From IMG/VR virus record IMGVR_UViG_3300029381_000172: a stretch of 5,484 bases of DNA; one strand, given 5' to 3'. Shown piece by piece: positions 2,859 through 5,405 of this stretch. The notes beneath the pieces were generated by a model, which worked only from the letters and a program-made list of their open reading frames with translations, was not told the DNA's origin and ran no database searches. The DNA is from a virus. The position numbers and the translations under genes were made by a program. The stretch's first letter is position 1. The number at the start of each line of letters is the position of its first letter.

Positions 2859-3137
2859 ATGCTTAAAGTTTACTCAATCTTGGATGATAAAGCACAGTGC
2901 TTCAATACGCCGTACTTTGCCCAAAATGACTTGGTTGCTAGCCGTTCTTTTAGTGATTTGTGTAATGATAGTCGGAGTCTTGTTAGTCAGCATCTCGGCG
3001 ATTTCCACTTGTATTGTTTAGGTGAGTTTGATGACGAAAAAGGTCTTCTTAAGCCTTATGATGTGCCTAATTTTATTAGTCACGCCTTACAGTATGCTAA
3101 TGTCGAAAGGAATGATGTTGATGGAGATTCGTTCTAG
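2859..3137 (+). CDS. Gokushovirus VP5-like small protein, 92 aa
   Basis: ATG 2859 with AAGGAG (2843..2848). The sequence MLKVYSILDDKAQCFNTPYFAQNDLVASRSFSD...GDFHLYCLGEFDDEKGLLKPYDVP fits the conserved VP5 pattern (FD.K...F..PFF..ND..A.R.F ... DF.L..LG.FDD.TG...P.D.P) seen in Chlamydia-type microviruses. Its 3' end overlaps the VP3 start. Confidence 0.7.
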   Translation: MLKVYSILDDKAQCFNTPYFAQNDLVASRSFSDLCNDSRSLVSQHLGDFHLYCLGEFDDEKGLLKPYDVPNFISHALQYANVERNDVDGDSF

Positions 3138-3558
3138 ATATAACGCCGGTGTCCGCGAAGGTTGGAAGTCGAGTACTCCTTCTATGACGCAGCAGCAGTT
3201 TAAAGACGAAGCAGATATCAATTATATCGTTTCAATGTATGATTCTTCTGGTGTTATGCCTACGTTTCACGGTGACGGTCAGCCTGCGCAGCCTGTTTTT
3301 GGTGATTTTGCATCACTGCCGGACAATGCGCAGGAAATGTACAATCGCATGATTGAGGCTAAAAATAACTTTGACAATTTGCCGTTAGAGGTTCGTAAGC
3401 GTTTTAATTATGACCCTGCTGCTTTCCTGGATTTTGTTGACAATCCGGAAAATTTGGATGAGCTTGTGGCCATGGGTCTTGCCACCAAGACCGTTATTAA
3501 CTCTGATAATCATACAGGAAATACGGATAATAATGCAGTCGATAATGCTAATGAATAG
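3112..3558 (+). CDS. VP3 internal scaffolding protein, about 148 aa from ATG 3112. The track ORF 3022..3558 starts at an upstream GTG.
   Basis: The C-terminal half (FKDEADINYIV...FGDFASLPDNAQEMYNRMIEAKNNFDNLPLEVRKRFNYDPAAFLDFVDNPENLDELVAMGLAT) matches the conserved gokushovirus scaffold signature (FKDECDIN ... FGDF ... LP..IR.RF.NDP..FL.FV.DP.N..EA..LGL). ATG 3112, or 3115/3121, is preceded by AAAGGA (3105..3110). Size from 3112 is the usual 148 aa or so. The upstream 30 codons overlap VP5 and code an odd Met/Leu-rich stretch. Confidence 0.85.
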   Translation: MMLMEIRSRYNAGVREGWKSSTPSMTQQQFKDEADINYIVSMYDSSGVMPTFHGDGQPAQPVFGDFASLPDNAQEMYNRMIEAKNNFDNLPLEVRKRFNYDPAAFLDFVDNPENLDELVAMGLATKTVINSDNHTGNTDNNAVDNANE

Positions 3559-3630
3559 GCATTTTCTCAATAAATGTCACTTTTTATCAGAAAAGCTGAA
3601 AAACCGCATGGTTGACACTTTTGTTTTCAG

Positions 3631-3665
3631 GTCGTACCAGTTCTACTTGATGTAACTGGTACGAC
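3631..3665. other. Perfect 12-bp inverted repeat with an 11-nt loop: GTCGTACCAGTT-ctacttgatgt-AACTGGTACGAC. Strong stem-loop in the VP3-VP1 intergenic leader.
   Basis: Read directly: the right arm is the exact reverse complement of the left arm. It is the strongest secondary-structure element in the genome, with TTGACA (3612..3617) 14 nt upstream. No U-tract follows, so it is not a classic intrinsic terminator. Confidence 0.6.
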
Positions 3666-3668
3666 TGA

Positions 3669-3687
3669 CACCAATGTTAGATTGGTG
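3669..3687. other. Second hairpin: CACCAAT-gttag-ATTGGTG (7-bp stem, 5-nt loop), 3 nt after the first
   Basis: Perfect inverted repeat read directly. The tandem hairpin pair sits 33 nt upstream of the VP1 start. Confidence 0.5.
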
Positions 3688-3719
3688 CTCTAAATACAGA
3701 TGTTAGGAGATGTATAAAA

Positions 3720-5405
3720 ATGTCAAAAAGAGCTACTCAACACAACTTTGCTATAAGTCCACAAAACCAGGTTCCCCGGTCTTCGTTTAAGCGTTCTCAT
3801 ACGGTTAAGACTACGTTGGATGCAGGTCGACTTGTTCCTTTTTATATCGATGAAGTTTACCCCGGTGATACTTTTAATTGTAAAGCAACGCTTTTTGGCC
3901 GCATGGCTACGCCGATTGTTCCGGCCATGGATAATGCTTATATGGATACTTTCTTTTTTTTCGTTCCATATCGTTTGCTTTGGAAGCACTGGAAAGAGTT
4001 CAATGGTGAAAATCCGCTTGCCGGTTATCAGAGCACAGAATATGAAGTGCCGCAAATGACGGCTACAAACGCTCAAGTACAGACGCTTTGGGACTATTTC
4101 GGCTTTCCGACTGATGTAAAAAATAAGTTATCCGTAAGTGCGTTTCCGTTCAGAGCTTATTGGAAGATTTACAACGATTGGTTCCGTGACGAAAATCTTC
4201 AGAACGCCGTTTCAATCCAGACTGGCAATCCGCTTTCTTCGACTTCGTCAGAAGACGACGCTTATGGTGGCGATGCTATGCAAGATGCTACGACTGCGCA
4301 GTGTTTTTATCGTGGTAAGCGTCATGATTACTTTACAAGTGCCTTGCCCTGGCCGCAAAAAGGTCCTGGTGTAGAGCTGCCTCTTGGTCAGACTGCTAGT
4401 ATTACTGGTTCTTTGCCTCTTAGCGGCTCTGTTGGTATTGCTGAGCCTTTGCCTGGTTGGACGGATCCTAATCCAGGTTTATACGTTCATGTAGCTGGTG
4501 TTAATACTGAATCTTTTTCTACTGTGAAGTTAAAGGGTGGTCAGCGTCCTGCGCCGTCTAATTCGCTCGATACCCCTTTAAGTTTATCTCTTAATGGTAC
4601 TGCTGATGCAACTAAAGCTACGGTTGATTTATCTACCGCAACTGCAATTACAATTAATAGTTTACGTTCTGCTTTTGCGCTTCAACGATTCTATGAAAAA
4701 GACGCTCGTGGTGGTACGAGATATACTGAAATTATTCGTTCTCATTTTGGTATTATTTCGCCGGATGCTCGTCTTCAGCGTAGCGAATACCTCGGCGGTG
4801 ATTCGACACCGATTATGTTTAACCCCGTTCAGCAGACGTCTTCTACGGATACAACTTCGCCGCAAGGTAACCTGTCTGCATATGCTTTGATGAGTACACG
4901 TGTTCATGGATTTAATAAGTCTTTTACGGAGCATGGTATTGTAATCGGTTTATGCAATATTCGCACTGATTTGAGTTATCAGCAAGGTATTAATAAGACA
5001 TGGCTTAGACAAACTCGTGAAGAATTCTATTGGCCTACTTTTGCTCATCTTGGCGAGCAGGCTGTGTTGAATAAGGAGATCTACGCCCAGGGCACTGATG
5101 CTGATAACCAGGTTTTCGGTTATCAGGAACGATATGCCGAATGCCGTTATCATCCATCCATTATTACTGGTAAGATGCGTTCAACATATGCGCAGAGTAC
5201 GGATGTTTGGCATTTTGCCCAGAAATTTGATGCGCTCCCGGCTCTTAATGGTGAGTTTATCCAAGACCAGGCGTCTTATCAAGCAATTAAGCGTATTAGT
5301 GCAGTACAGTCTGAGCCTCAGTTTTATCTTGATGCATATTTAGATTTAAAGTGCGCTCGTCCGATGCCGGTTTATGGTGTTCCTGGTATGCTTGACCATT
5401 TTTAA
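3720..5405 (+). CDS. VP1 major capsid protein, 561 aa
   Basis: ATG 3720 with AGGAGA (3705..3710). Gokushovirus VP1 hallmarks: N-terminal MSKR...HNFAISPQN...RSHTVKTTLDAGRLVPFY.DEVYPGDTF, the block INSLRSAFALQRFYEKDARGGTRYTEIIRSHFG after a Ser/Thr/Gly/Pro-rich variable insertion, and a C-terminal FYLDAYLDLKCARPMPVYGVPG. Size is typical at 530-570 aa. Ends TAA 5403..5405 inside the terminal repeat. Confidence 0.95.
   Translation: MSKRATQHNFAISPQNQVPRSSFKRSHTVKTTLDAGRLVPFYIDEVYPGDTFNCKATLFGRMATPIVPAMDNAYMDTFFFFVPYRLLWKHWKEFNGENPLAGYQSTEYEVPQMTATNAQVQTLWDYFGFPTDVKNKLSVSAFPFRAYWKIYNDWFRDENLQNAVSIQTGNPLSSTSSEDDAYGGDAMQDATTAQCFYRGKRHDYFTSALPWPQKGPGVELPLGQTASITGSLPLSGSVGIAEPLPGWTDPNPGLYVHVAGVNTESFSTVKLKGGQRPAPSNSLDTPLSLSLNGTADATKATVDLSTATAITINSLRSAFALQRFYEKDARGGTRYTEIIRSHFGIISPDARLQRSEYLGGDSTPIMFNPVQQTSSTDTTSPQGNLSAYALMSTRVHGFNKSFTEHGIVIGLCNIRTDLSYQQGINKTWLRQTREEFYWPTFAHLGEQAVLNKEIYAQGTDADNQVFGYQERYAECRYHPSIITGKMRSTYAQSTDVWHFAQKFDALPALNGEFIQDQASYQAIKRISAVQSEPQFYLDAYLDLKCARPMPVYGVPGMLDHF

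Follow-up and report, generated by a model that had tools for sequence, protein, structure and literature searches.

A conserved intergenic hairpin with a TGACACC box as the probable viral-strand replication origin of gokushoviruses

The stretch studied here, IMG/VR virus record IMGVR_UViG_3300029381_000172, is a gokushovirus (Microviridae) genome of 5,484 nt, called the window below, in which every gene lies on the + strand according to the list of open reading frames (ORFs) and Pfam. Between the stop codon of the scaffold gene VP3 and the ATG of the capsid gene VP1 it has a gap of 161 nt (3559-3719) that contains two hairpins, and the question raised by this locus is which function they serve. 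A sequence-only reading had described the gap as a structured leader of VP1, and had proposed a complementary-strand origin or an mRNA-stabilising or attenuating element. On the evidence presented below, hairpin 1 and the TGACACC box that follows it are probably the viral-strand (+) rolling-circle origin, dependent on the replication initiator VP4 and with a predicted nick between G3649 and A3650. The parts of the gap to which the text refers are the following.

3612-3617, + strand: TTGACA, inside the segment 3560-3630
3631-3642, + strand: 5' arm of hairpin 1, GTCGTACCAGTT, complementary to 3654-3665 at 12/12 positions
3643-3653, + strand: loop of hairpin 1, CTACTTGATGT, 11 nt, with the core CTTGAT inside
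3654-3665, + strand: 3' arm of hairpin 1, AACTGGTACGAC, from the repeat finder and covariation
3666-3672, + strand: TGACACC box, directly 3' of hairpin 1, candidate Rep-binding ("key") sequence
3669-3687, + strand: hairpin 2, CACCAAT (3669-3675) with ATTGGTG (3681-3687), loop GTTAG (5 nt)

Sequence and repeat finder agree with the sequence-only reading on the perfect 12-bp stem with its 11-nt loop, and also on the second perfect stem of 7 bp (3669-3675/3681-3687), which begins 3 nt (TGA) past hairpin 1 and pairs part of the TGACACC box with downstream sequence. That such stems are unexpected holds for the longer one. The stem of hairpin 1 is the longest perfect short-range inverted repeat of the window (the runner-up has 9 bp), and a 12-bp stem was obtained in 0/300 dinucleotide-preserving shuffles of the window, where the maximum was 11, in 3 shuffles. 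A perfect 7-bp hairpin is by itself ordinary, with about 7.6 ± 3.4 per shuffled genome. The folding check suggested by the same reading was run for both nucleic acids: the whole gap folded at −29.4 kcal/mol as DNA (z = −5.7) and at −48.9 kcal/mol as RNA (z = −4.5). Folded alone as DNA, hairpin 1 reached −11.8 kcal/mol (z = −6.7) and hairpin 2 −5.0 kcal/mol (z = −4.05).

One such hairpin per genome, placed in an intergenic gap, is present across hundreds of gokushovirus genomes, including those of Chp2, phiMH2K, and SpV4. With the 161-nt gap as query, a sensitive blastn search matched 103 of 50,697 phage records. Apart from seven close relatives, the matches cover only positions 3624-3679, with 81-94% identity, and these hairpin-only matches belong to otherwise unalignable microviruses from pig, Ciona, honeybee, tortoise, blackfly, plant, and seawater. 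Two separate scans of IMG/VR for an exact 22-base pattern found it in at least 119 and at least 120 contigs, and blastn of the hairpin against E. coli genomes gave no match. A covariance model was built from 26 elements and used with a threshold of E ≤ 0.01. In the window, the model (R1) matches 3628-3674 on the + strand with 59.5 bits and E = 4e-12, the sole strong match there. In an element-blind sample of 80 loci, picked by VP1 similarity alone, it matches the VP1 strand in 62/80; the misses are mostly partial contigs, and about four near-complete genomes of this sample have no detectable copy. The copy number is one per genome, and two copies occur only in concatemer-length contigs, where they lie one genome length apart.

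The stem is conserved as a structure and the loop as a sequence. Across the family the stem has 7-19 bp and its sequence is free to vary: the inner CAGTT of the 5' arm is kept family-wide, and the arm's outer 5-7 positions change together with the 3' arm. In the element-blind alignment, all the modelled pairs (12/12) have changed on both sides, with 130 doubly changed cells vs 45 ± 5 in shuffles (0/500) and a covariation score of 0.507 vs 0.131 (slid controls ≤ 0.099). The alignment used for covariation (A5) was fitted to the covariance model, and a hand-registered ungapped seed (A3) gives the same result; a MAFFT alignment of 69 elements (A2) was left out of the pair counts, because variable loop lengths put its 5' arm out of register. 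Among the non-Watson-Crick cells, 10 are G.T and 9 are A.C; as G.T is about as frequent as A.C, a DNA structure fits better than an RNA one. In the VP1-selected sample, the loop core columns read C52 T52 T50 G52 A48 T52 of 52 sequences, and the columns of the TGACACC box, located 0-6 nt past the stem, are kept in 49-51/52. The loop is exactly 9 nt long, CTACTTGAT, in many genomes.

The cultivated phages illustrate this variation. The Chp2 element is CTAGCGTATAACAG-TCTACTTGAT-CTGTTATACGCTAG, with a 14-bp stem around the loop TCTACTTGAT; that of phiMH2K is GTTCGGCTAC-GGACCCTACTTGTTGTAA-GTAGCCGAAC, with a loop that includes CTACTTGTTGT; and that of SpV4 is GGGGCATAT-ATTACTTGTTATA-ATATGCCCC, followed by ATTGACGAC. 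Hairpin 2 is a looser companion of hairpin 1, frequent but not universal. In 65% of 143 non-redundant relatives, vs 22% of shuffled sequences, the box has 4 nt or more that pair with sequence downstream of it, and the partners differ by genome (CACCAAT/ATTGGTG in the window, TGACACC/GGTGTCA or GACTGAC/GTCAGTC elsewhere).

The element keeps a largely constant place relative to VP3. It directly follows VP3 in about 129/137 genomes, and the gene downstream of it, which follows the gene order, is VP4 in 89/137 genomes and VP1 in 36/137. Thus, the element is not tied to VP1, and its constant relation is to stand just after VP3. The idea of a structured VP1 leader does not survive this comparison, and the conservation at the VP3-VP1 junction proposed by the sequence-only reading as a check is found in part: hairpin 1 is kept in relatives, with many compensatory changes, at a junction that is defined by VP3 and not by the VP3-VP1 pair. 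In phiMH2K (L148, AF306496) the hairpin lies after VP5, not directly after VP3.

The loop can be compared with a well-studied origin of the same virus family. In the phiX174 record of GenBank (J02482), the origin of viral-strand synthesis is annotated at 4306, in CCCCCAACTTG/ATATTAATAACACTATAGACCAC, and protein A cuts between G4305 and A4306 within the 30-nt viral-strand origin (ori+), by Tyr343/Tyr347 (bioRxiv 10.64898/2026.07.25.740675). The window loop CTACTTGATGT and the phiX174 sequence CAACTTGATAT (nick site CAACTTG/ATAT) are identical at 9/11 positions, and the core ACTTGAT is identical. The 30-nt ori+ was compared without gaps with all 10,968 positions on the two strands of the window; the unique best match had 18/30 identical positions and started at 3643. 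This register begins at the first base of the loop and aligns the GAC of the box with the GAC of GACCAC. The layout of the phiX174 ori+ is an AT-rich spacer plus a key binding sequence (CACTATAGACCAC), and the agreement of the window over the full 30 nt is 18/30. Judged from these alignments, the likeness appears to consist of a shared nick-site core and a similar layout, and homology over the full 30 nt is not claimed.

The initiators are also similar. VP4 of the window matches the phiX174 A protein in BLASTP with E = 5e-6, in an alignment around the HUH motif, which reads RPHYHAVIF in VP4 and RLHFHAVHF in phiX174; the di-tyrosine motif is YVARYVMKK in VP4 and YVAKYVNKK in phiX174 (Tyr343/347). 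The origin of phiX174 and G4 (Bullavirinae) is likewise a single copy on one strand, served by a homologous initiator. The gokushovirus site follows VP3 in an intergenic gap and occupies the loop of a hairpin of 10-12 bp that covaries, and the phiX174 site lies next to an AT-rich spacer. The placement of the origin inside the initiator gene is a matter of Bullavirinae genome layout rather than of mechanism. In our judgement hairpin 1 and the box are likely to be the counterpart of the 30-nt phiX174 ori+, presented in an intergenic hairpin loop.

A rolling-circle mechanism can be proposed on this basis. The stem would expose the conserved loop (Y)TACTTGAT(GT) in single-stranded form, either on single-stranded DNA (ssDNA) or when the supercoiled replicative form extrudes a cruciform. 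VP4, which is an HUH endonuclease and has a pair of catalytic tyrosines, would dock on the conserved inner stem and on the TGACACC box, the putative Rep-binding sequence, cut between G3649 and A3650, and become joined to the 5' end. The host polymerase would then extend the 3'-OH and displace the strand; once the hairpin is regenerated, the second tyrosine would cut and ligate, so that a circular genome would be released for packaging. A nick site in the loop of a conserved hairpin and an HUH Rep are also features of the origins of CRESS-DNA viruses (the geminivirus/circovirus nonanucleotide) and of the double-strand origins of pT181/pMV158-type plasmids. There, too, a conserved loop sits atop a covarying stem, and the loop has 9 nt in many gokushovirus relatives. 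Unlike these origins, the gokushovirus element has a different loop sequence, no iterons, and a two-tyrosine Rep of the phiX174/VP4 type. The likeness is one of mechanism only, and not of membership.

The orientation of the element relative to the genes gives further evidence. The survey included 281 unique genomes, with the element in the same orientation as the genes in 271 of them and inverted relative to most or all genes in 10. In the latter it is still located in the VP3-VP4 gap, without a second copy in the normal orientation; all genes are co-oriented in 9/10, and the tenth (L315) has genes on both strands. The third-codon A-T skew is +0.48 to +0.62, with a third-position T fraction (T3) of 0.07-0.13, in 8/10 inverted genomes: Blackfly microvirus SF02 (L025, MK249209, element at about 1175-1222), L105, L112, L125, L234, L260, L267, and L330. 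In the distribution of the 271 same-orientation genomes (median −0.29), these eight fall no lower than the 99.6th percentile (Mann-Whitney p = 3.6e-6), and their nearest same-orientation relatives by VP1 have skews of −0.5 to −0.7 and T3 of 0.36-0.58. Thus, in 8/9 purely inverted genomes, the third-codon A/T skew has the sign that goes with the orientation of the element. Since nothing but the intergenic element flips, it must contain whatever determines the asymmetric strand. Setting the displaced or packaged strand is the job of a plus-strand origin; neither a minus-strand origin nor an RNA element would by itself have this effect.

A neighbour-joining tree of VP1 needs at least five changes of orientation, a count taken from a tree without support values and in which recombination is possible. 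It is conceivable, with the balance tipping slightly against it, that the hairpin decides the packaged strand, that it was inverted independently at least four to five times on the VP1 tree, and that the virions of the inverted lineages carry the strand antisense to every gene. If this were true, the reversed third-codon A/T skew would be the mutational footprint of a packaged-strand switch. In the genome with genes on both strands (L315, an IMG/VR contig of 4492 nt), VP4, VP3, and the element share a strand, and VP1 and VP2 are on the opposite one; the contig is from an ambisense gokushovirus, or else its assembly holds an inversion.

Three other explanations were weighed against a viral-strand origin. 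The hairpins could be a complementary-strand origin read by host primase, PriA, or RNA polymerase, as are G4 oric and the phiX174 PriA hairpin; this we consider unlikely, but still the foremost of the three. The gap has the stable, intergenic set of hairpins on the presumed viral strand that this explanation needs, and the strand-specificity argument equally puts a minus-strand origin on the packaged strand. In the window, CTG follows hairpin 1 at 3665-3667, and the G4 primase site has a CTG beside its hairpin; among the relatives, though, the trinucleotide after the stem is GTG (30/52) more often than CTG (19/52). The Microviridae origins of this type (G4 oric and the phiX174 PriA hairpin, which overlaps the terminator T_F) are likewise intergenic hairpins of the viral ssDNA beside the capsid gene (bioRxiv 10.64898/2026.07.25.740675), but they are host-read and not conserved between hosts. 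The gokushovirus loop and box, instead, span host phyla, being common to phages of Spiroplasma, Chlamydia, and Bdellovibrio and to gut and marine contigs, and they resemble ori+: the likeness of the loop is to the nick site of phiX174 ori+, not to ori-. Given that host-read minus origins are host-specific and that loop and box are conserved across hosts, a phage-encoded reader is indicated. Moreover, inversion of a complementary-strand origin alone could not flip the asymmetry, so that a plus origin would have to lie in the same inverted segment. Other small microviruses have conserved hairpins that lie upstream of Rep, and for these, too, a minus-strand origin has been proposed (PMC9865509). 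The microviruses in question are the reekeekee- and roodoodoo-microviruses, in which the function of the intergenic hairpins was left open with a leaning toward this role (Olo Ndela et al. 2022, PMC9865509). Compared by description, those hairpins are similar in lying between genes beside Rep, in keeping their loop identical, and in having stems with compensatory changes (PMC9865509), and they differ in belonging to other Microviridae clades. Within the gap, the candidate places for a complementary-strand origin are mainly hairpin 2 and the conserved stretch of about 72 nt upstream (the invariant segment 3560-3630), and such an origin could possibly coexist with the plus origin. The phiX174 nick-site match, the conservation across unrelated hosts, and the tracking of skew by orientation are the reasons for which we favour a plus origin over a complementary-strand one. 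A role in DNA replication, one of the roles that the sequence-only reading had put forward, is hence the best reading of the element, with the evidence pointing to the viral strand in the case of hairpin 1.

The hairpins could also act in the VP3-VP1 transcript, as a terminator, a 3'-stabilising hairpin of the mRNA, or an attenuator or leader for VP1 translation. The RNA fold is good (z = −4.5), the element lies between genes on the coding strand in 271/281 genomes, phiX174 intergenic regions carry terminator hairpins (bioRxiv 10.64898/2026.07.25.740675), and in the predicted RNA fold 3559-3572 pairs with the region of the ribosome-binding site. This helix has no covariation support and is absent from the DNA fold. 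Also, a terminator or stabiliser needs neither the conserved loop nor the conserved box; no T/U tract is present, the downstream gene varies among genomes, G.U is not in excess over A.C, and Rfam has no family for the element. The inverted copies retain the DNA-strand sequence, so that transcripts would hold its complement, which speaks against the mRNA-stabilising or attenuating role: the element is inverted in 10/281 genomes, and an RNA element would not come through this with an unchanged loop sequence. We regard a function in the transcript as very improbable. Equally improbable is a DNA site for some other protein and unrelated to nicking, such as a packaging signal for VP5 or the procapsid, or a regulatory operator. 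The element is, it is true, single-copy, sequence-conserved, and strand-oriented, and in 17/130 genomes hairpin 2 repeats the box in inverted form, like a dimer-binding palindrome. Packaging in phiX174 is linked to the action of the A protein at the origin, and this phage is not known to have a separate signal for it. Such a site would leave the nick-site likeness and the conservation of the Rep motifs unexplained, and packaging specificity alone would not choose the displaced strand.

Several results weigh against the interpretation of hairpin 1 and its box as a VP4-dependent plus origin. Cleavage by VP4 and the nick position between G3649 and A3650 are predicted by analogy. The 18/30 match stands one step above three chance matches of 17/30. 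In the reverse direction, a 30-column weight matrix of the gokushovirus elements fails to rank the true phiX174 origin first in the phiX174 genome, and when the 23 non-core columns are scored, the origin gets no further than the top 2.3% of positions; the likeness outside the core is weak, and because of this failure the claim of homology with phiX174 leans mainly on the 7-9-nt core. The phiX174 site lies inside gene A and not in a hairpin. A depletion of ACTTGAT elsewhere in the genomes was not seen (77 observed vs 72 expected, and 74 vs 73 on the other strand); this is neutral for the origin hypothesis, and it means that nick specificity must come from the context. No iterons were found, nor extra direct copies of the box within ±150 nt of the stem, in 130 genomes. 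Among the inverted genomes, L138 is purely inverted and yet has an unflipped skew, and the skew of same-orientation genomes ranges up to +0.52, with +0.39 in the isolate phiMH2K. Given these same-orientation exceptions, skew is an imperfect reporter of the packaged strand. Lastly, sampling by covariance model and sampling by pattern both favour conserved loops. In phiMH2K, A3 is 0.40 and T3 is 0.18, the third position is strongly A- and C-rich, and the hairpin is in gene orientation, which makes this phage an exception to the T-rich viral strand.

Other candidate functions for parts of the gap were tried and rejected. An inverted copy of the box just downstream (TGACACC/GGTGTCA) is present in 17/130 genomes; a second TGACAC at 3613-3618 of the window was discarded as an iteron, not being general among genomes. 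The box (cTGACA) was rejected as a −35 element since it is too near the next start codon in some genomes, with only about 17 nt between them. The TTGACA highlighted by the sequence-only reading is indeed at 3612-3617, but as a promoter it was rejected: it is unique to the window among 11 close relatives and has no −10 element. Position 3615 is A in the window only, and T or C in the ten close relatives (TTGTCA or TTGCCA). A consensus scan found no sigma-70-like promoter on the + strand within 3559-3719. It also found no terminator-like site (stem plus T-run) there, and neither hairpin is followed by a T-run; an intrinsic terminator was accordingly rejected, as the sequence-only reading had argued from the lack of a U-tract. 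A dif/XerCD site was excluded because loop and box are unlike dif. In Gokushovirus WZ-2015a (L027, KT264826, human gut), at about 4404-4440, the box is followed by GGTGTCACATAATGTCATAATGTG, which is XerC-arm/dif-like, and then by repeated GTGTC(G/A) units; from its sequence, this may be a phage dif site that adjoins the origin. In Rfam, the gap matches no family, and the only three matches elsewhere in the window have E = 0.9-8, far under the gathering scores.

The segment between the VP3 stop and hairpin 1 (3560-3630, about 72 nt) is of interest by itself. In the alignment of 11 close relatives nearly every column of it is identical, while in the same relatives the end of VP3 varies and coding sequence differs by 10-18%; in this close clade the whole gap, from the VP3 stop through the TGACACC box, is almost invariant. 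The near-invariance next to a variable VP3 end means that this segment is constrained too. Its DNA fold is weak (z = −1.9), and it could be a minus-strand origin or a promoter that is not of the sigma-70 type. In the minimum-energy RNA fold, a helix between 3559-3572 and 3698-3713, the region of the VP1 ribosome-binding site, closes the whole gap. This helix does not appear in the DNA fold, and the relatives are too alike for a covariation test of it.

The genes of the window and the translation signals of VP1 are listed here.

58-1101, + strand: VP2 pilot protein (PHROGs)
1613-2539, + strand: VP4, HUH replication initiator, presumed to act on hairpin 1 (Pfam PF23343, E = 3.5e-21)
2859-3137, + strand: VP5 (Pfam)
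3022-3558, + strand: VP3 scaffold, with the stop at 3556-3558 (Pfam Chlamy_scaf, E = 4.6e-35)
3706-3710, + strand: VP1 ribosome-binding site AGGAG, with the start codon ATG at 3720-3722 (sequence, ORF)
3720-5405, + strand: VP1 capsid (Pfam Phage_F, E = 1.3e-167)

The nearest public relatives are microviruses from pig faeces, with 87-89% nucleotide identity in blastn against the phage records. The best sigma-70-like promoter match of the window is at 1121-1149 on the + strand (TTGACT, 17 nt, TATAAT, 11/12, extended TG). It is located in the 511-nt gap between VP2 and VP4, just 5' of an unannotated 62-aa ORF (1169-1357), for which no match was found in Pfam, NCBIfam, or PHROG.

The element was also found in bacterial genomes, in a scan of one genome per species. 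It lies after VP3 inside integrated gokushovirus prophages, on large chromosomal contigs, in the cultured isolates Phascolarctobacterium faecium DSM 14760 (L345) and Intestinirhabdus alba BIT-B35 (L355 and L365, on one scaffold), and in a metagenome-assembled genome (MAG) of Desulfovibrionaceae (L370). In I. alba, two distinct prophages seem to sit one behind the other on the scaffold, and their junctions fall between VP2 and VP4. Enterobacterial prophages likewise have their integration junction between these two genes, away from the element. Three further bacterial contigs, of MAGs (L367, L364 (6239), and L343), contain the element with its stem and share about 100 nt of flank upstream of it, and in these VP1-VP5 were not detectable near the element. 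One of them, from a Pseudomonadota MAG (L367), has direct copies at 2809-2836 and 4427-4454, 1.6 kb apart, beside a tyrosine integrase gene (45-719). The ORFs between the two copies have no match in Pfam or PHROG, and the segment may be a remnant, or it may be satellite-like, with an origin at either end.

Furthermore, the loop, the 3' arm, and the box occur as a spacer in two CRISPR arrays, in Natronospirillum operosum G-116 (L353, about 3535-3567) and Marinomonas arctica 328 (L354, about 6933-6964). One array has 32-nt I-C-like repeats in at least 11 copies, the other 28-nt I-F-like repeats in at least 23 copies. Both spacers begin at the same T of TACTTGATG, and the phage loops give TTC or CC just upstream, which presumably fits the protospacer adjacent motifs of types I-C and I-F. 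The presence of the element as a spacer in both arrays links gokushoviruses to these two species.

In viromes of gut, sea, and soil, gokushoviruses rank with the most abundant ssDNA phages, and, as far as we found, their replication origin has not been mapped or annotated before. No description of the element in gokushoviruses was found in the searchable open-access literature, and an earlier mention in the original genome papers of Chp2 and phiMH2K is possible. A single recognisable origin would offer a natural zero coordinate and a strand assignment for thousands of metagenomic genomes. The element would also be a minimal cis element for ssDNA-producing vectors and a conserved target for linking phages to hosts, for which two bacterial CRISPR arrays already hold a spacer. 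The E. coli EC6098 system and purified VP4 would each allow a direct test of the origin question, and the prophages of P. faecium, I. alba, and Desulfovibrionaceae are possible experimental systems. To our knowledge, "negative-sense" microviruses have never been described, and the inverted elements open up the possibility, which can be tested, that in some microviruses the packaged strand is the antisense one.

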